Source: an uncultured Thiotrichales bacterium (lineage in GTDB: Bacteria; Pseudomonadota; Gammaproteobacteria; UWMA-0217). Taken from it: 34,612 nucleotides of DNA. The notes beneath the pieces were generated by a model. That model was not told the DNA's origin. It did not search any database and saw nothing but the letters and a program-made list of their open reading frames with translations. Within the stretch, counting starts at the first letter, position 1, and every line of letters begins with the position of its first letter. The position numbers and the translations under genes were made by a program. This document shows positions 1 to 34,612 of the stretch, piece by piece. The DNA is taken from positions 1 through 34,612 of the forward strand of contig CAZTJP010000003.1 in the NCBI GenBank assembly GCA_964613895.1. The letters are read 5' to 3'.

Positions 1-124
1 CTGGCGTTCGCGACCGAGGGCTGCGCAGGCGTAGTCGACACTACGTCGAGCAGCCCGACCGAGTGAACGACAGTCAGCGCGCCGCATTGGGCGGCCGCAG
101 CCGTGATCCTGTGAGAAATGCGGG
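1..124 (+). repeat. Palindromic MITE-like element, copy 1 (5' part cut by window edge)
   Basis: Colinear with 19824-19947 without gaps (8 mismatches in 124 by manual count); right end GAGAAATGCGGG at 113-124, followed by CTAG at 125-128. Confidence 0.93.
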
Positions 125-919
125 CTAGCCCGGGTTTTTCATATCGAAAACACGCCACTTTCTTTTTGCAGTGATTTCAGTCACTGACTGAACAACATAC
201 CGGTTCAGAAAGATGATGCTGCTGATTCGTCTGCATGGACTGAACCCGGCTTTCTCCATGGCTCTCATCGACGGGGTGTTATCGGGCGCACAACTGGTGT
301 ATATCGAGTCATGATCGCGTGCTTCGGTGAGGTAATGCGTAATTGCAACCAGCACGCTAGGAAAGATTCCCCGGCCCCGCCATGCCTCGATCGTTTCGCA
401 ATTTCCGATCAGGGGCACTTTCGGATCGAGGCCAAGCAGATGCTTGTAACTGCTTCGATAGAACGCATAGGAATGGTGAATCACGCGGCCTTCATGATCA
501 AGCACGGCGAATAACAGATCATCCTTGTAGAGCTGCGCCCGGTACTGGGCATCTTCAAGCGCGAACAACTGCTGATGAACCTCTGGCTCCAGGCTGTCTG
601 GAGGTCGATCCGCCCCAACCCGACATAATGTCAGATCCGGAAAATCAGCTAACCCGGGTTTCTCGCAGGGCCGCGCAGCGAGGCCGCTCAGCGCGCCGCA
701 TTGGGCGGCCACAGTCGTGATTCCGCGAGAAATCCGGGCTAATCCTGCCCGCTTCGACTCAGGCTTCCAGTGATAAACGACATCGCGTTGCAGACGCAAC
801 AAGCGTCCAGCCATGAACAGCAGGAACTTGCGAACACCGCGTTTACGCCAGACAGTAACGAGTCGCTGAAAGATTGCCGCAAGGCTGGTCGCCGAATGCA
901 CGCTGGATTCTGACTTCAT
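125..919 (-). CDS. GNAT-family N-acetyltransferase carrying a 30-aa repeat-derived insertion
   Basis: 264-aa ORF with acetyl-CoA motif A-like 'CETIEAWRGRGIF' and C-terminal 'DNTPSMRAMEKAGF'; contains repeat copy 2; start codon uncertain. Confidence 0.72.
   Translation of the reverse strand: MKSESSVHSATSLAAIFQRLVTVWRKRGVRKFLLFMAGRLLRLQRDVVYHWKPESKRAGLARISRGITTVAAQCGALSGLAARPCEKPGLADFPDLTLCRVGADRPPDSLEPEVHQQLFALEDAQYRAQLYKDDLLFAVLDHEGRVIHHSYAFYRSSYKHLLGLDPKVPLIGNCETIEAWRGRGIFPSVLVAITHYLTEARDHDSIYTSCAPDNTPSMRAMEKAGFSPCRRISSIIFLNRYVVQSVTEITAKRKWRVFDMKNPG
653..738 (+). repeat. Palindromic MITE-like element, copy 2 (internally deleted, 86 bp), inside GNAT CDS
   Basis: Ends CCCGGGTTTCTC (653-664) and GAGAAATCCGGG (727-738); CTAA direct repeat at 649-652 and 739-742 (90 bp apart). 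Confidence 0.92.
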
Positions 920-983: not shown

Positions 984-1045
984 AGCCAACCCGCCAGGTT
1001 TGGCAGGATTATTCGACCGTGACGCTTTTGGCCAGGTTTCTCGGC
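984..1045 (-). other. attTn7-type site (3' end of glmS and downstream insertion point), apparently unoccupied
   Basis: glmS ends in the conserved PRNLAKSVTVE whose coding DNA is the TnsD recognition region; no tns genes seen downstream within the window. Confidence 0.5.
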
Positions 1046-2841
1046 TGATCGACGTCGGTTCCCTTGAGTATCGCTGTGTGATAGGACAATAGCTGTAGGT
1101 AAACGACATTGACCACCGGCTCGACGATCGGCGGCGTGGATTCGATATCGACGACAGTCACCTGTTCATCGCTTTCGAAACCGGCTCCGGCTTCTGCAAA
1201 TATATAGAGTTTTCCACCCCGCGCCCTGACTTCCTCGAGATTCGACTTGAGTTTCTCTGCCAGATCGTTGGAAGGCGCCACCGCGATGACGGGCATGTTT
1301 TCATCGACCAGCGCCAATGGACCGTGTTTGAGTTCACCGGCCGGATAGGCTTCTGCATGGATATAGGATATTTCCTTGAGCTTGAGCGCCCCTTCCATGG
1401 CAATGGGATACTCGATTCCACGTCCCAGAAAGAGGGCGTGATCCTTGTCCACGAACTCGTTGCAGAGCGATTCGATTTCGGCGTCCTTGGCGAGAGCCCG
1501 TTCGACCAACGCGGGCAACTGGCTCATGGCGGAGACGATTTCGGCGCGTTTGCCAGCTGCCATTCCGTGATGCTTGGCAACCGCAGTGACCAGTTGCAAC
1601 AGACAGACGAGTTGGGTCGTGAAAGCCTTGGTGGAGGCAACGCCTATTTCCGGACCTGCCTGGGTCATCATCACCAGATCAGACTCACGCACCAGTGAAC
1701 TCTCGGGGACATTGCAGATCGCCAAAGAGGCGAGATAGCCACTTTCCTTCGCCTGCATCAGCGCTGCCAGCGTGTCGGCGGTTTCACCCGACTGTGAAAT
1801 CGTCACGAACAGGCAGTCATCCGGCACGACATGCGGTCGATAACGGAATTCGCTCGCCACTTCGACCTGGCAGGCGGTATCCGCCAGCGATTCGAACCAG
1901 TATTTGGCGCACAATCCGGCATGATAGCTGGTGCCACAAGCCACGATCTGGATATTGCGAACCCGCTCGAAGATCTGCGACGCTTCCATGCCGAATGCAC
2001 GGTCGAGTACATCATCTTGACTGATCCGCCCTTCCAGCGTCTCGGCAATGGCGTTGGGCTGTTCGTAGATCTCCTTTTGCATGAAGTGCTTGAACTGACC
2101 ACGCTGCACCGAGCTGTCATTCTGTGTCGAAGTTTTCGTTTCGCGCTCGATCGGCTTGAGATCCTGATCGAACAATGCAACTTCTCCACGGGTGATGCGA
2201 CCAATGTCACCGTTCTCGAGATAGATGAAATTATGGGTGACTGGCAACAGGGCCTGAATATCCGAGGCAATGAAATTTTCCTGTATACCGAGTCCGATGA
2301 CCAACGGACTGCCTTCACGCGCGACGACCAGTGTTTCCGGCTTATCGGCCGCGATGACGCCCAGCGCATAGGCGCCCTTGAGATCCTGGGTCGCCTGCTG
2401 GACCGCTTTCAACAGATCACCGTGTTCGCGGTAATAAAGACTGATCTGATGAACGATGACTTCGGTGTCGGTTTCGGAGGTGAACGAAAAGCCCTGCGCC
2501 TTTTGCTGCTCGCGCAGTTCCTCGAAGTTTTCGATGATGCCATTGTGCACCACCGCCACACGGCGATCGCAGATATGTGGATGTGCGTTTTGCTCACTGG
2601 GCACACCATGGGTTGCCCAGCGTGTATGGGCAATGCCCAGTCCGCCCGGCAATGGCTCGTTGTCGAGTGCCGCTTCGAGTTCAGCAACCTTGCCAACACG
2701 CCGGTAGCGTGCCAGTCCACCATCAGCATTGACGATGGCCATGCCCGAAGAGTCATAGCCGCGGTATTCCAGGCGCTTGAGACCTTCCAGCAGGATGGGA
2801 TAGACATCGCGTTGAGCGACGCCGCCTACGATTCCACACAT
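1009..2841 (-). CDS. glmS: Glutamine--fructose-6-phosphate aminotransferase
   Basis: N-terminal MCGIVG, HTRWATHG, ELKHGPLAL, C-terminal PRNLAKSVTVE; 610 aa; follows glmU. Confidence 0.99.
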   Translation of the reverse strand: MCGIVGGVAQRDVYPILLEGLKRLEYRGYDSSGMAIVNADGGLARYRRVGKVAELEAALDNEPLPGGLGIAHTRWATHGVPSEQNAHPHICDRRVAVVHNGIIENFEELREQQKAQGFSFTSETDTEVIVHQISLYYREHGDLLKAVQQATQDLKGAYALGVIAADKPETLVVAREGSPLVIGLGIQENFIASDIQALLPVTHNFIYLENGDIGRITRGEVALFDQDLKPIERETKTSTQNDSSVQRGQFKHFMQKEIYEQPNAIAETLEGRISQDDVLDRAFGMEASQIFERVRNIQIVACGTSYHAGLCAKYWFESLADTACQVEVASEFRYRPHVVPDDCLFVTISQSGETADTLAALMQAKESGYLASLAICNVPESSLVRESDLVMMTQAGPEIGVASTKAFTTQLVCLLQLVTAVAKHHGMAAGKRAEIVSAMSQLPALVERALAKDAEIESLCNEFVDKDHALFLGRGIEYPIAMEGALKLKEISYIHAEAYPAGELKHGPLALVDENMPVIAVAPSNDLAEKLKSNLEEVRARGGKLYIFAEAGAGFESDEQVTVVDIESTPPIVEPVVNVVYLQLLSYHTAILKGTDVDQPRNLAKSVTVE

Positions 2842-2842
2842 A

Positions 2843-4213
2843 TCAGTTTTTCCTCTTGCTCGGGCGTTTCCAGGTTTCTACCGTGACCTGTTTTGCACGC
2901 GCCAGATTGAGCGTTTCGGCGGGCGCATCTCTGGTAATGGTCGAGCCAGCGCCAATCGTGGCGCCATCCTCGATGACGACTGGCGCCACCAGCGCCGTAT
3001 TGGAGCCGACGAATACGTCGTTGCCGATCGTGGTCTGGTGTTTGTTGACCCCGTCATAATTGCAGGTGATCGTGCCGGCGCCGATATTGGTATGCTCGCC
3101 AATACGCGTATCGCCGATATAGCTGAGGTGGTTGACCTTGCTGCCGGATCCCACTTCGGATTTTTTCACTTCGACGAAGTTACCAACCTTGGCGTTCTCA
3201 TGAAGCACAGCCTCGGGGCGCAGACGAGCGAATGGCCCGACACTGCATCCGCTTTCAACACGCGCGTTCTCGATCACGCAGTTGGGCTCGATGGTGACGT
3301 TATCACCAATCCTGCTGTTGACGATCACACAATTGGGGCCGATACGAACGTTGTTTCCCAGTTCGACCTCACCTTCGAACAGGCAGTTGAAGTCGATAAA
3401 TACGTCCTTGCCCACCACCAGTTTGCCACGCAGGTCGAAGCGGTGCTTGTCCGCCAGGGTGACGCCCTGCTTCATCAGGTTTTCTGCCTGTTCGAGCTGA
3501 TAGCTGCGCTCGAGTTCGTTGAGCTGTTGCTTGTCGTTCACGCCGGCCACCTCCGATAACGCTTGTGCCTGAATACCGATAACGGCACCGCCCTCCGCGA
3601 TACAGGCTTCGATACAATCGGTTAGATAATACTCGCCCTGGGCGTTGTCGTTATTGAGCGCATTCAAATATCGGGACAGGTCTTCCCGCATCGCACAGAC
3701 GATACCGGTATTGCCCTCGGTGATCGCCAGTTCAGCGTCACTGGCATCCTTTTGCTCGACGATTTTGCGAATGGCGCCCGACTCGTCCCGGACGATCCGG
3801 CCATAACCCTGTGGATCGTCGAGCTCGACGGTGACCAGATTCATGCGACCTGCCGATATCCCTTCGGTTGCCCGGCGCAGGGTTTCCTCCCGGATCAGCG
3901 GCACATCGCCATACAGCACCAGCACCTTGTCGGACTGAACCTTGGGCATAGCCGCCTGCACGGCATGACCGGTACCCAGCTGTTGTTCCTGCAGCGCCCA
4001 GTCAAGGTTGGCGCCATTGACGCTGTCACGTACCTGATCGGCGCCATGCCCCACCACGACCACGACTTCCTGAGGGTCGAGTCGCGTCGCAGTATCGACG
4101 ACGTGTTGCAACAGCGCCCGGCCTGCCAGTGGGTGCAAGACTTTCGGCAGGGAAGAACGCATTCTGGTGCCCTGACCGGCCGCAAGCACTATGATTGCCA
4201 GTGATTCGTTCAT
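2843..4213 (-). CDS. glmU: Bifunctional UDP-GlcNAc pyrophosphorylase / glucosamine-1-phosphate N-acetyltransferase
   Basis: LAAGQGTRM, YGDVP, EYYLTD, hexapeptide repeats, GAGTITCNYDG; ATG at 4213 preferred over TTG at 4216. Confidence 0.98.
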   Translation of the reverse strand: MNESLAIIVLAAGQGTRMRSSLPKVLHPLAGRALLQHVVDTATRLDPQEVVVVVGHGADQVRDSVNGANLDWALQEQQLGTGHAVQAAMPKVQSDKVLVLYGDVPLIREETLRRATEGISAGRMNLVTVELDDPQGYGRIVRDESGAIRKIVEQKDASDAELAITEGNTGIVCAMREDLSRYLNALNNDNAQGEYYLTDCIEACIAEGGAVIGIQAQALSEVAGVNDKQQLNELERSYQLEQAENLMKQGVTLADKHRFDLRGKLVVGKDVFIDFNCLFEGEVELGNNVRIGPNCVIVNSRIGDNVTIEPNCVIENARVESGCSVGPFARLRPEAVLHENAKVGNFVEVKKSEVGSGSKVNHLSYIGDTRIGEHTNIGAGTITCNYDGVNKHQTTIGNDVFVGSNTALVAPVVIEDGATIGAGSTITRDAPAETLNLARAKQVTVETWKRPSKRKN

Positions 4214-4309
4214 CAAAAAAACCGTGATAGCGTTCTATTAGACAGGAAAATCAGAAAAGTTCCCTACCTGTCCGCGTCAGACCGGTTGATTCTACAATGG
4301 CGCTTCAAC

Positions 4310-19725: not shown

Positions 19726-19993
19726 GGTATCGATGAACCTGGTTGGGAAAGAATTTATCCGGCATCGCCAGCCCGGATTTCTCGCCGGGTCGCGTAGCGA
19801 GGCCGCTCAAGGTGGTGCGATGACTGGCGTTCGCGACCGAGGGCCGCGCAGGCGTAGTCGACACTACGTCGAGCAGCCCGACTGAGTGAACGCCAGTCAG
19901 CGCGCCGCATTGGGCGGTCGCAGCCGTGATTCTGGGAGAAATCCTGGCCAGGATTTCCGTAACCTTCAATAATGTCTGGCAATCTTGCGCCAT
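19718..19993 (-). CDS. Possible 91-aa ORF in the yidD position, two-thirds encoded by repeat copy 3; not recognisable as YidD
   Basis: Overlaps the rnpA 3' end and the yidC start, but lacks the YidD CRFxPTCS and HP..GG.DPVP motifs; may be non-coding. Confidence 0.25.
   Translation of the reverse strand: MAQDCQTLLKVTEILARISPRITAATAQCGALTGVHSVGLLDVVSTTPARPSVANASHRTTLSGLATRPGEKSGLAMPDKFFPNQVHRYHG
19772..19947 (+). repeat. Palindromic MITE-like element, copy 3 (full length, 176 bp)
   Basis: Ends CCCGGATTTCTC / GAGAAATCCTGG; CCAG direct repeat at 19768-19771 and 19948-19951 (180 bp apart); nested inverted repeats throughout. Confidence 0.95.
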
Positions 19994-23518: not shown

Positions 23519-24607
23519 ATGGAGCTGCGTAAGCTCACGATCCAGTCTTTCAGGAATCTGTCATCACTGACGTTGGCGCCAGGCCCCGGGTTCAATGTGT
23601 TCTGGGGCGCGAATGGGGCTGGCAAGACTAGTATTCTCGAGGCGATTCATACGCTTTCTCAGGGTAAATCCTTTCGTAGTGGCGCTGTCAGGGATCTCAT
23701 CCAGTATCAGCAATCATCTTTCGTCATCAGCGCCGAGTTGGTGCGTTCCGGCAGTCTCCACCATATCGGCATCGAACGAAGCAGGGAACGCATGCGCGCC
23801 CGCATCGATTACGAGGATGTCGGCTCGATCAGGGAACTGGCCCGTAACTTGCCAGTCATCAGTATCCATCCCGGTTCCTTTGCGCTCATCACCGGAGAGC
23901 CGGCAGCGCGGCGTGCTTTTCTCGATTGGGGACTTTTCTTTGCCGATGCCGGATTTCACGACCACTGGCTCCGTTATGCTCGAGCGCTCAAGCAACGTAA
24001 TGCCGCGATTCGGTTGGGTAGTTCACCCAGACTGATTCGGCAGTGGGATGAAGCACTGGTCGAGCATGGCGAAATCATTTCTCGCGCGCGGCAGGGTTAT
24101 CTGCAACAGATCGCCGAAGGGCTGCCTTCCACTGCCGAGCAGTTTTCCTGGCAGGACAAGCTGGCGTTGAATTACCGTTGGGGCTGGCCTGATAACCAAT
24201 CGTTGGCTGAGGTGCTGGAACAGAACATCGACCGAGACCGCCAGCTTGGATTCACCTTCGCAGGCCCCCATCGGGGCGATTTCTCCACTCGTTTCTGTGA
24301 TCATGACGCCGCGCGTTTTGGCTCCCGCGGTCAAGTCAAGATGATTACATTGCTGCTCAAGCTGACCCAGGCACGCTTGTTCGCCAACCAGTTTGATCGG
24401 AAATGCGTGCTGTTGCTCGATGATGTCGCGTCGGAACTCGATCAGGAGAGGCAGTTGCAGTTGATTGGCGTGGTATACAGGCTAGGGCTGCAAACCTTCG
24501 TGACGTCAGTGGAGAAGAACGCTGAATTGTATCGTGGGGCTTCGGATACACGGATGTTTCACGTGAAACATGGCAAGTTGTCCCGGAATTCTCACAGGGT
24601 CGTATAG
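23519..24607 (+). CDS. recF: DNA replication/repair protein RecF
   Basis: FRNL, GANGAGKTS Walker A, GPHRGD, SRGQ, LLLDDVASELD; last residues and stop come from repeat copy 4. Confidence 0.97.
   Translation: MELRKLTIQSFRNLSSLTLAPGPGFNVFWGANGAGKTSILEAIHTLSQGKSFRSGAVRDLIQYQQSSFVISAELVRSGSLHHIGIERSRERMRARIDYEDVGSIRELARNLPVISIHPGSFALITGEPAARRAFLDWGLFFADAGFHDHWLRYARALKQRNAAIRLGSSPRLIRQWDEALVEHGEIISRARQGYLQQIAEGLPSTAEQFSWQDKLALNYRWGWPDNQSLAEVLEQNIDRDRQLGFTFAGPHRGDFSTRFCDHDAARFGSRGQVKMITLLLKLTQARLFANQFDRKCVLLLDDVASELDQERQLQLIGVVYRLGLQTFVTSVEKNAELYRGASDTRMFHVKHGKLSRNSHRVV
24555..24570. promoter_or_regulatory. parS centromere-like site (inside recF 3' end)
   Basis: Perfect TGTTTCACGTGAAACA palindrome matching the canonical chromosomal parS consensus; parAB present in window. 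Confidence 0.92.
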
Positions 24608-24766
24608 GAGACTGCTCAAGGTGGTGTGATGGCTGGTGTTCGCGAGCGAGGGCCGCGCAGGCGTAGTTGACACACAGGGACACTACGTCGAGCAGCCCGA
24701 CCTTGTGAACGACAGTCAGCGCGCCGCATTGGGCGGTCGCAGTCGTGACCCTGTGAGAAATTCGGG
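24582..24766 (+). repeat. Palindromic MITE-like element, copy 4 (185 bp, enlarged central loop)
   Basis: Ends CCCGGAATTCTC / GAGAAATTCGGG then CTAG; aligns with copy 3 with about 10 extra nt in the apical hairpin. Confidence 0.93.
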
Positions 24767-24867
24767 CTAGCAAATAAGCGGGCAGGCAAGCAGTTACATC
24801 GGGATTTTCAATCAGAACAGGTATATAATAGCGGTTCAGCAATCTGCTGAATCCCAAACTACCTCCA

Positions 24868-24883
24868 TGTTTCACGTGAAACA
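24868..24883. promoter_or_regulatory. parS centromere-like site (recF-gyrB intergenic)
   Basis: Second perfect TGTTTCACGTGAAACA, 313 bp from the first. Confidence 0.92.
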
Positions 24884-24975
24884 TTCCCGGGTTACTCGTT
24901 ATCGCCGTGAGGATTTTCCCGTTGGATACTGGGCGGGATCGAAGCGATAGACAGGGGCAGGGCCCCGGACATTGA

Positions 24976-32573: not shown

Positions 32574-34607
32574 ATGGAAGCGGAAGATCGGGCAACCGAG
32601 CCCTCCCGCCAGCGTGGCTGGCTGGGTATCGACACCGGCGGCACGTTTACCGATTTCGTCTATATCGAACAAGGCGCGGTGCGTGTCCACAAGGTGCCTT
32701 CGACGCCGGACCACCCTGAGCAGGCGATCCTGCGCGGCATCCGCGAAATGGGACTGCATGAGCGGGCGTTGCGCATCGTTCACGGCTCGACCGTGGCCAC
32801 CAATGCGGTGCTTGAAGGCAAAGGCGCGCGCACCGCGTACATCACCAACCGGGGCTTCGGCGATATTCTGACGATTGGCCGTCAGGCTCGCCGCGAACTG
32901 TACAATCTCCAGCCCCGGCCCGGCGAGCCTCCAGTCCCGCGCGAGCTGTGCCTGGAAACCGGCGGACGCTTGTCGGCGGATGGTGAATGGCTGGAGCCGT
33001 TGACCGACGAAGATATCGAGCGATTGCGGGCGGCGCTCGCCCGGCTCCGTCCGCAAGCTGTTGCCATCAACCTGCTGTTCTCGTTTGTCGATGATTCCGC
33101 CGAACGGCAGCTGGCAGCCGCGATCGATCCTGCCATCTTTGTCTCACGTTCCTCTGCGGTATTACGGGAATACCGGGAATACGAACGGGGTATCGCCACC
33201 TGGCTGAATGCGCGAGTCGGGCCGGTGATGAAGCAATATCTGCGACGCCTGACGACGGCGCTGAAGGACTGTGACATCGAGGTCATGCAAAGTCATGGCG
33301 GCACCATTCCGGCTCGCCAGGCGGGTGATCTGGCCGTGCAATTGTTGCTGTCGGGGCCCGCTGGCGGACTGGTGGGCGCCGCGGCGATGGCGAAACAGCT
33401 CGGCCATGACCGGCTGATGACTTTCGACATGGGCGGCACCTCCACCGATGTGGCGTTGATCGATGGCGAAATCGGCCTGACTTCGGAAGGTCAGATCGCC
33501 GGTTTCCCGGTCGCCACGCCGATGGTGGACATGCACACCATCGGAGCTGGTGGCGGCTCATTGGCCTGGCTGGATGCCGGTGGCATGCTGCAAGTGGGTC
33601 CCGAGTCCGCTGGCGCGGATCCAGGACCGGCCTGTTATGGCCGCGGTGGCGACAGGCCCACGGTGACCGATGCCAATCTGTTACTCGGCCATCTCGCGCC
33701 GGGCACATTGCTGGGCGGATCGATGCCGCTGGATCGGCCTGCGGCAGAACGGGCAATCGCCCGACTGGCCGAACAAGCCAGCCTGACAGCGGCAGACATG
33801 GCACGTGGCATCGTGCGGATCGCGAACGAACACATGGTCCAGGCTCTGCGGGTGATCTCGGTACAGCGAGGCTACGATCCGCGTGATTTCGTACTGATGC
33901 CGTTCGGTGGTTCGGCCGGCCTGCATGTCTGTGCCCTGGCCGATGCGATGCGCATCGACCGGGTGCTGGTCCCGATTCATGGTGGCGTCCTGTCGGCTTT
34001 CGGCATGGTGGTCGCCGAGCCGGCGCGGGAAATCTCCCAGTCACTGGTGAAGCGACTCGACCGCTGTTCCGCCGATGAGCTGGCAGACCGCTTCACCGAT
34101 TTCGAGGCACAACTGGCCGCCGCGATGAATCATCCTGCCGACAGGCTCCGGTTCCAGCGTCGGGTGGAATGCCGATATCTGGGGCAATCTTCGGTGCTGC
34201 GGCTCCCCTGGCAATCCGATCCGGCGGCGATTGCGAAGGCATTCCACGATCTTCATCAGGCCCAGTATGGACATGCGCTGGATGCGCCGGTCGAGCTGGT
34301 CAACCTGCGGGCTCGGGCGGTTGCACCGCGCCAGCCCCATGACTTGCCGCGCCGTCCGATTCGTGAACCCGCCAGTCCGACCGATCATGTCCAAACGCTC
34401 GATGAAGGCCGCGTTCCGGTCTATGCGCGTGAGCAGCTGGCGCCGGCACAACGGATCGAAGGACCAGCGATCATCACGGAAACGGTTGCCACCACCTGGC
34501 TGGCACGCGACTGGACGGCAACGCTGACGCCTGAAGGCCATTTGTGGCTCGCCAGACCGCATTTCTCACAGGGTCGCGTAGCGACGTCGAGCAGCCCGAC
34601 CGAGTGA
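32574..34607 (+). CDS. Hydantoinase A / 5-oxoprolinase family protein
   Basis: GIDTGGTFTD, HGSTVATNA, SGPAGG, DMGGTSTDV, GAGGGS, PESAGADPGPACYG, PTVTDAN; last about 16 aa come from repeat copy 6. Confidence 0.93.
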   Translation: MEAEDRATEPSRQRGWLGIDTGGTFTDFVYIEQGAVRVHKVPSTPDHPEQAILRGIREMGLHERALRIVHGSTVATNAVLEGKGARTAYITNRGFGDILTIGRQARRELYNLQPRPGEPPVPRELCLETGGRLSADGEWLEPLTDEDIERLRAALARLRPQAVAINLLFSFVDDSAERQLAAAIDPAIFVSRSSAVLREYREYERGIATWLNARVGPVMKQYLRRLTTALKDCDIEVMQSHGGTIPARQAGDLAVQLLLSGPAGGLVGAAAMAKQLGHDRLMTFDMGGTSTDVALIDGEIGLTSEGQIAGFPVATPMVDMHTIGAGGGSLAWLDAGGMLQVGPESAGADPGPACYGRGGDRPTVTDANLLLGHLAPGTLLGGSMPLDRPAAERAIARLAEQASLTAADMARGIVRIANEHMVQALRVISVQRGYDPRDFVLMPFGGSAGLHVCALADAMRIDRVLVPIHGGVLSAFGMVVAEPAREISQSLVKRLDRCSADELADRFTDFEAQLAAAMNHPADRLRFQRRVECRYLGQSSVLRLPWQSDPAAIAKAFHDLHQAQYGHALDAPVELVNLRARAVAPRQPHDLPRRPIREPASPTDHVQTLDEGRVPVYAREQLAPAQRIEGPAIITETVATTWLARDWTATLTPEGHLWLARPHFSQGRVATSSSPTE

Positions 34608-34612
34608 ACGCC
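34556..34612 (+). repeat. Palindromic MITE-like element, copy 6 (internal deletion; cut by window edge)
   Basis: CCAG then ACCGCATTTCTCACAGGGTCGCGTAGCGA joined to CGTCGAGCAGCCCGACCGAGTGAACG, both matching the other copies. Confidence 0.9.

Follow-up and report, generated by a model that had tools for sequence, protein, structure and literature searches.

How can a gene take up a whole copy of a mobile repeat and stay open from end to end, and what, if anything, has the repeat done to the protein? The gene in question encodes a GNAT-family acetyltransferase and lies in the window, by which we mean the whole stretch of DNA that was analysed: contig C3, in its entirety (34,612 nt), of the metagenome-assembled genome (MAG) G000, which comprises 2.64 Mb in 436 contigs at 58.8% G+C and has a completeness of 93%. 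The features of the window are collected in the table below, together with the other proteins in G000 that carry the element. Copy 2 of the element, which belongs to the 84-nt core-to-core size class among the 64 complete copies, adds 86 bp to the GNAT gene and its target duplication adds 4 bp; the net gain is exactly 90 bp or 30 codons, as the first-pass annotation had it, down to the identity of residues 61-90. The span 649-742, which takes in both CTAA copies, is 94 bp long, and the TTA (Leu) of each target copy brackets the inserted codons. The sequence and its comparisons show that a MITE inserted in frame at a TTAG of the GNAT gene, and we consider it quite probable that it is translated as a tolerated loop of 30 residues, a passenger peptide in a protein that has kept its function.

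Features of the window and, in the last seven lines, proteins encoded elsewhere in G000 that carry an element-derived insert (positions are those of the window; C numbers are contigs of G000)
Feature	Location	Strand	Description	Basis or comparison
GNAT-family acetyltransferase ORF	125..919	-	264 aa	ORF list, Pfam, homologues, Foldseek
Element copy 1	1..124	.	truncated by contig start; end abuts GNAT stop codon	repeat family D1, sequence
Flank of copy 1	125..128	.	CTAG; minus-strand TAG (125-127) is the GNAT stop codon	sequence
Target-site duplication, low-coordinate side	649..652	.	CTAA (TTAG in gene orientation); codes Leu90	sequence
Inserted codons	650..739	-	residues 61-90, ARISRGITTVAAQCGALSGLAARPCEKPGL	translation
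Element copy 2	653..738	.	86 bp; internally deleted, both terminal inverted repeats kept	sequence, repeat families D2/D4/D5
Target-site duplication, high-coordinate side	739..742	.	CTAA; codes Leu60	sequence
glmS-glmU	1009-4216 region		adjoining GNAT	names read off ORF list
Element copy 3	19772..19947	.	full length (176 bp); flanks CCAG/CCAG; intergenic beside yidC	sequence
Element copy 4	24582..24766	.	185 bp; contains last ~8 codons and stop of recF (23519-24607)	sequence
Element copy 5	34556..34612	.	truncated by contig end; gives last ~19 codons and stop of hydantoinase-A-like ORF 32574-34607	sequence
CysZ	C131		15 extra aa	absent in 5/5 relatives
GT39-like membrane protein	C258		about 25 extra aa	absent in 4/4 relatives
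TamB	C159		48 extra aa	absent in 6/6 aligned relatives; gap also in paired matches of 9 genomes
Formate-dehydrogenase-alpha-like protein	C248		17 extra aa, different element frame	absent in 2/2 orthologues
GlnE	C93 plus C421		60 extra aa	absent in 7/7 genomes with both flanks matched
M48 peptidase	end of C38		60 extra aa	absent from C240 allele or paralogue
Histidine kinase	C336 plus C9		60 extra aa	full peptide internal

The names of the neighbouring genes rest on Pfam for yidC, recF and the hydantoinase, and for the remainder on our reading of the ORF list. Judged from the sizes and order of the ORFs, positions 4365-27396 hold an apparent atp operon, parAB, mnmG, mnmE and dnaA-dnaN upstream of recF and gyrB, and the contig seems to hold the chromosomal origin region. 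Between recF and gyrB a perfect 18-nt palindrome, ATGTTTCACGTGAAACAT (inside 20-nt arms), occurs at 24554-24573 and again at 24865-24884, 291 nt apart; the two palindromes bracket element copy 4 and may each be a protein-binding site.

The insert in the GNAT protein

The assignment of the ORF to the GNAT family is supported by a Pfam match to Acetyltransf_3 over residues 178-226 (28.5 bits against a cut-off of 25.4), by 302 homologues at E<=1e-3 in an exhaustive HMMER search, and by Foldseek, which ranks GNAT structures at the top of its matches to the predicted model (lowest E 8e-6; the TM-scores are modest, at 0.36-0.43). From the 152 homologues listed of these 302 we picked 28 of near-full length and aligned them with the query and with P0001, a 99% identical protein from a second assembly (alignment A2). 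When P0001 is set aside, the insert is absent from 28 of 28 homologues, leaving the clean gap of 30 residues that had been anticipated. A word-indexed search returned three relatives only (P0001-P0003) and gave the same picture: the spacing from Y49 to F93 is 43 residues in the window protein versus 13 in P0002 and P0003 (59% and 45% identity), and the linker of a same-genus homologue in G001 is also 13 residues long.

The insert is internal as well as extra. Upstream of it the protein aligns family-wide in A2, with the motif RL...RG...F...RL.R...D.VF and a nearly invariant G28, and since this N-terminal region is conserved across the family, the GNAT protein starts upstream of the element. 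Homologues beginning downstream of the insert, which the first-pass annotation had named as an observation that would refute its reading, did not turn up; those of 209-256 aa all begin 5' of the insert site. A translation start 3' of the insert, giving a shorter GNAT protein with the insert in its 5' leader, is therefore extremely unlikely, even if the strong hairpin described below could serve as a 5' structure and ORFs called in G+C-rich DNA may be made too long at the 5' end: the upstream region corresponds to the N-terminal ~50 residues of the family, and no ATG lies between the insert and the GNAT core.

The remainder of the protein is equally well kept. Every column that is invariant or nearly invariant in A2 is retained by the window protein (T176, R181, G182, G28, P169, C174, L190, L197, N214, S217, A224, F226); two of these, R181 and G182 in WRGRGIF, never vary among the family members and presumably represent the acetyl-CoA motif. 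P0001 keeps both the ORF and the insert with no frameshift and differs from the window protein by 3 substitutions, namely K2M and two adjacent residues within the insert, too few differences between the two alleles known to measure selection. Such intactness argues against the insertion having killed the gene and left a young pseudogene, open because the frame is stop-free and the event recent, which we judge distinctly unlikely. That alternative would draw on the accessory nature of the gene (present in 2 of the 41 genomes searched, G000 counted in), such that loss of function might be tolerated, on the second element abutting the stop codon, which marks a heavily hit locus, and on the RNA: the insert forms a strong hairpin in the mRNA (-54.6 kcal/mol, z -4.23), in which the arms of copy 2 pair and which could impede translation or invite cleavage. 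Further points that tell against it are that the linker occupied by the insert differs among family members, in sequence and to some extent in length, that the fold around the insert is modelled confidently, and that the housekeeping genes glnE, tamB and cysZ contain comparable inserts, so that this organism evidently copes with inserts that are read through.

In an AlphaFold2 model built on A2 (mean pLDDT 84.3, pTM 0.79), the GNAT fold is predicted confidently and the insert as a low-confidence coil or loop, placed between strand 41-51 with helix 53-66 on one side and strand 97-102 on the other. The pLDDT falls below 50 solely at residues 1-3, 5-8 and 64-86, although within the insert low values may merely reflect the missing alignment depth there. 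Taken together, the conserved columns and the modelled fold favour a tolerated surface loop in a protein that may be translated and active.

Some observations bear on the two alleles and their sources. The difference within the insert lies at window residues 70-71 (TV versus AA) and makes the insert of one allele match copy 1; it could reflect gene conversion between element copies. The insertion is present in DNA contigs of 3 runs from 2 studies, two of which runs may be the source of the DNA of contig C3, and one insertion-carrying run is labelled as a hydrothermal vent metagenome. An empty-site joint skipping copy 2 was found in none of the contigs of 4 runs, contigs that drop rare variants and are thus compatible with polymorphism at the site.

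The element family, its ends and its landing sites

Measured between the two cores, complete copies of the element form a nested series of classes with lengths of 46, 59-61, 71-73, 84-87 and 174 nt. The ends are the same throughout, and what sets the classes apart is how much of a long internal hairpin has been deleted; the copies add between 50 and 189 bp to the DNA in which they lie. The terminal inverted repeats read CCCGGATTTCTCAC... and ...GTGAGAAATCCGGG in the 64 complete copies. Of these 64, 21 have the same 4 bp on both sides and in a further 15 the two flanks differ by one base, compared with a single identical pair among the 64 when the next 4 bp outward are taken as a control, and the flanking 4-mers are mostly CTAG, TTAG, CTAA or TTAA (YTAR). 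With its terminal inverted repeats, target-site duplication, small size, many copies and lack of a transposase gene, the element has the structural properties by which a MITE is recognised. No Rfam family was matched in a search of the window. A 21-nt pattern describing the element end matches 201 times in G000 versus 0 times for its reversed control, and BLAST defines 224 element loci in this genome, so that the repeat is no product of chance; of 40 relatives, four contain the pattern (22, 27, 15 and 1 matches) and the other 36 lack it. As many as 70 of the 872 contig ends in G000 lie inside the repeat. We also considered whether size classes of 3n length amount to a coding design and rejected the idea: 32 of the 64 copies add a multiple of 3, but the excess is carried by few, non-independent size classes.

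The distribution of the element extends beyond this genome. The same 174-nt element was seen in MAGs labelled Sedimenticola, Gammaproteobacteria and Spirochaetales, and the end of ~21 nt also heads MITE-sized elements (137-277 bp) with unrelated interiors in MAGs with the labels Candidatus Versatilivorator, Solimonas and Rhodospirillaceae and in one of a vent gammaproteobacterium, among others (loci L056-L135).

The ends also point to a family of insertion sequences. A segment of 1698 bp (L149:1344-3041, from the genome of locus L058), lying in a MAG labelled Candidatus Versatilivorator, encodes an IS1380-family transposase (412 bits against a cut-off of 180), starts with CCCGGATTTCTCAC, finishes with GTGAGAAATGCGGG and is flanked by CTAG and CTAA. 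It is the single full copy, two further copies retaining the right end alone. Its ends (CCCGSATTTCTCAC...) and YTAR flanks are common to the window element, which differs from it in having no transposase; the 4-bp target duplication, too, is in keeping with the IS1380 family. That the ends are shared with one full copy elsewhere supports, at the level of sequence, the derivation of the window element from IS1380 as a MITE. The IS1380 transposase (NF033539) was found neither in G000 (93% complete) nor in G001, G004, G010 and G012, four relatives that have the ends, an absence that is weak evidence given that repeats often go unassembled. Ten solo ends from other genomes, chosen from 23 without a convincing partner in a first scan (one had a weak match with 4 mismatches), were aligned against the 2-5 kb downstream and yielded no partner end. 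An ISKra4 transposase beside one solo end (L068) was considered as well, and no link between it and the end was found.

Most copies of the element are intergenic, and a few per cent of them are seen inside genes. Gene ends seem to be a main landing site: among the 284 element ends with flanking sequence, 45, copy 1 included, coincide exactly with the TAA or TAG that terminates an inward-reading ORF (100 aa or longer). The element hairpin could at such places act like a REP or a terminator. CTAG, CTAA, TTAG and TTAA are the four most under-represented 4-mers in G000; YTAR 4-mers occur at 0.05-0.09 of the expectation from base composition and at 0.32-0.54 of that from a second-order Markov model.

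Further carriers and the recurrence of one peptide

The first-pass annotation had proposed that the element donates a recurring peptide module to host proteins. To count carriers, we collected stop-free frames that span an element locus with at least 40 aa on each side, and confirmed candidates by Pfam and by relatives. This gave 81 spanning frames over 290 loci, of which BLAST defines 224, the other 66 being bare matches to the 13-nt core and for the most part due to chance. Five contig-internal loci were intragenic by eye and confirmed against relatives, and three more carriers extend across contig breaks, namely GlnE, the M48 peptidase and the histidine kinase. The latter were found by comparing the 64-aa translation of copy 3 with the longer ones among public proteins; the entries concerned turned out to be genes of G000 itself, in which the assembly is interrupted within the element. 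Because these three are split, a contig-internal census undercounts intragenic copies. In all, eight proteins carry an element-derived in-frame insert, the GNAT protein and seven others in G000. For seven of the eight, all but the histidine kinase, comparison was made with a homologue, a relative or a second allele that lacks the insert. The name GT39-like comes from reading the sequence of a protein that has no Pfam match at E<=0.001.

The peptide itself is thus found in CysZ, TamB, the GT39-like protein, GlnE, the M48 peptidase and the histidine kinase, and the proposed recurrence stands, with seven more proteins of which one uses another frame. Its description as a module in the sense of a functional unit is not supported: the inserts measure 15-60 aa, some are truncated, and that of the GNAT protein is modelled as a low-confidence loop.

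Several other loci were examined and set aside, on the basis of inspection by eye and of G+C by codon position. In C134 (imuA), C240, C72, C19, C87, C203 and C316 the element comes shortly before the start, so that there is no internal insert; C266, C214, C75, C9:6672 and C4 have antisense-like or non-coding frames and are not carriers. The TPR protein of C177 may have an element-derived N-terminus. In C189:1-822 (P0163), which encodes a hydroxyacylglutathione-hydrolase-like protein, the element is at the immediate 5' end and the called start Met is inside it; the element may supply the start codon and an N-terminal extension of ~50 aa, or the start may be mis-called. The M48 peptidase is present in G000 in two versions, one at the end of C38 with the 60-aa insert and one uninterrupted at C240:2042-3304. 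They are identical over roughly the first 210 aa and then diverge, with CTGG in the uninterrupted version where the other has CTAG, which suggests co-assembled strains or a chimeric contig.

Why the same peptide should recur follows from the reading frames of the element. We translated all complete copies with their flanks. Divided as YTA|R, the target gives a frame (Leu, Ala-Arg-Ile-Ser-His-Arg...) that has one open orientation, and no more than one, in 13 of the 14 copies of the 180-bp class and in 6 of the 7 copies of the 78-bp class; within the window this frame is likewise open in copy 1 (ORF 3..158, minus strand), copy 3 and copy 4, in line with the earlier reading. The opposite orientation reads LARISHRVA-stop, which rules out a palindrome giving the same peptide in both orientations. 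The second element frame starts and ends on the TAR of the target, and the third has stops. Only one of the six combinations of orientation and frame is therefore stop-free, and the frame of the host is kept solely by size classes that add a multiple of three. With one open combination and classes of 3n length, recurrence of the peptide is to be expected from survivorship alone.

The same arguments weigh on the alternative that the peptide has been selected as a functional module, which might serve as a flexible linker or through its pair of cysteines (QCG ... RPCEK) and which the element would spread among proteins to the advantage of the host. The reading is the same in at least 7 proteins, the two cysteines are conserved in most copies and the inserts persist in housekeeping genes, all of which such selection would explain; yet conservation of the peptide already follows from conservation of the DNA repeat, and we find the alternative very improbable. 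The inserts range from 15 to 60 aa, some of them cut short or with internal deletions, the proteins that carry them are unrelated in function, most of the copies found lie outside genes, the GNAT insert models as a low-confidence coil, and one of the eight carriers uses another frame.

The course of events that we favour for the GNAT gene is in-frame insertion of a tolerated passenger. An IS1380-type MITE entered a TTAG between the codons that are now 60 and 91, in a sequence that originally encoded ...K-R-A-G-L-A-D-F.... The copy is an 86-bp deletion derivative of an element of ~176 bp, with the 4-bp duplication bringing the gain to 90 bp. As it happens to lie in the sole stop-free orientation and frame, it would be read as a loop of 30 residues, located in the variable linker that joins the N-terminal helices and strand to the GNAT core, and the enzyme most likely still folds and works. 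Insertions in other orientations or frames, or of classes other than 3n, would truncate the protein and be lost, so that the same peptide would come to be seen in other proteins as well. The peptide is probably a neutral, tolerated passenger and not a selected module.

Significance and comparison with known systems

The survival of selfish repeats in frame is best documented in Rickettsia and, less so, in Coxiella, both of which have host-restricted, decaying genomes. An outcome like that of the Rickettsia palindromic elements (RPEs) is now met in a metagenome-assembled vent gammaproteobacterium, in well-defined proteins that include a sensor kinase, and its cause would be simple: a target of YTAR type, size classes of 3n length, and a single combination of orientation and frame that is free of stops. 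Clean inserts in housekeeping proteins of a bacterium that is not host-restricted constitute a natural experiment, in which each insert tests how well loops are tolerated in the fold concerned; the coincidence of target 4-mers, rarest tetranucleotides and stop codons offers another useful one. There are also practical consequences. Full-length copies break short-read assemblies, to the extent that 3 of the 8 cases are visible only by joining contig ends, and gene callers will split or mis-start genes that carry an insert.

A bolder interpretation may be offered tentatively, as a rather doubtful possibility. The MITE would be an RPE-like, "coding-compatible" parasite of a free-living bacterium of chemolithotroph type, in which it has seeded a disordered two-cysteine peptide into at least eight proteins, some of them with housekeeping roles; with YTAR now the rarest class of 4-mers and stop codons the main landing sites, the element and the oligonucleotide usage of the genome would have shaped each other, and the inserts would be raw material for new loops, more than just scars.

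A literature search of main texts, which was not exhaustive, retrieved no paper that joins IS1380, a MITE and in-frame insertion. According to the review PMC10969869, it is not unusual for a MITE inside a gene to be fused in frame with the ORF of the host, and the RPEs are the extreme case (Ogata et al. 2000, as cited there). The parallel with RPEs that the first-pass annotation drew holds for the outcome, as in-frame inserts in unrelated proteins, and is one of behaviour. In both cases a short palindromic repeat is found in frame in unrelated genes, encodes a conserved peptide and leaves the host protein apparently undamaged. The host of RPEs is Rickettsia, whereas here it is a vent gammaproteobacterium of free-living type; the window element, unlike RPEs, has clear terminal inverted repeats, a 4-bp YTAR duplication and IS1380-type ends. 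Nearly half of the RPEs of R. conorii are intragenic according to PMC10969869, as against the few per cent noted above for the window element.

Closer in taxonomy are QMITE1 and QMITE2 of Coxiella burnetii, for which PMC5896051 reports in-frame and C-terminal insertions in genes. These are likewise gammaproteobacterial MITEs that overlap genes, some of them in mid-ORF and in frame and some giving C-termini and stop codons. They belong to another sequence family and another host, and the internal in-frame cases reported concern mostly hypothetical proteins; the hosts of the window element, in contrast, are well-defined (GlnE, TamB, CysZ, M48 peptidase) and have insert-free relatives to compare with. 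ERIC, BOX and Correia elements are also small repeats that sometimes lie within ORFs and add peptide, and they are named in PMC10969869. They presumably are unrelated families with other target sites. The mechanism is already known in kind; the present case adds a set of clean inserts in housekeeping proteins that are backed by comparators.
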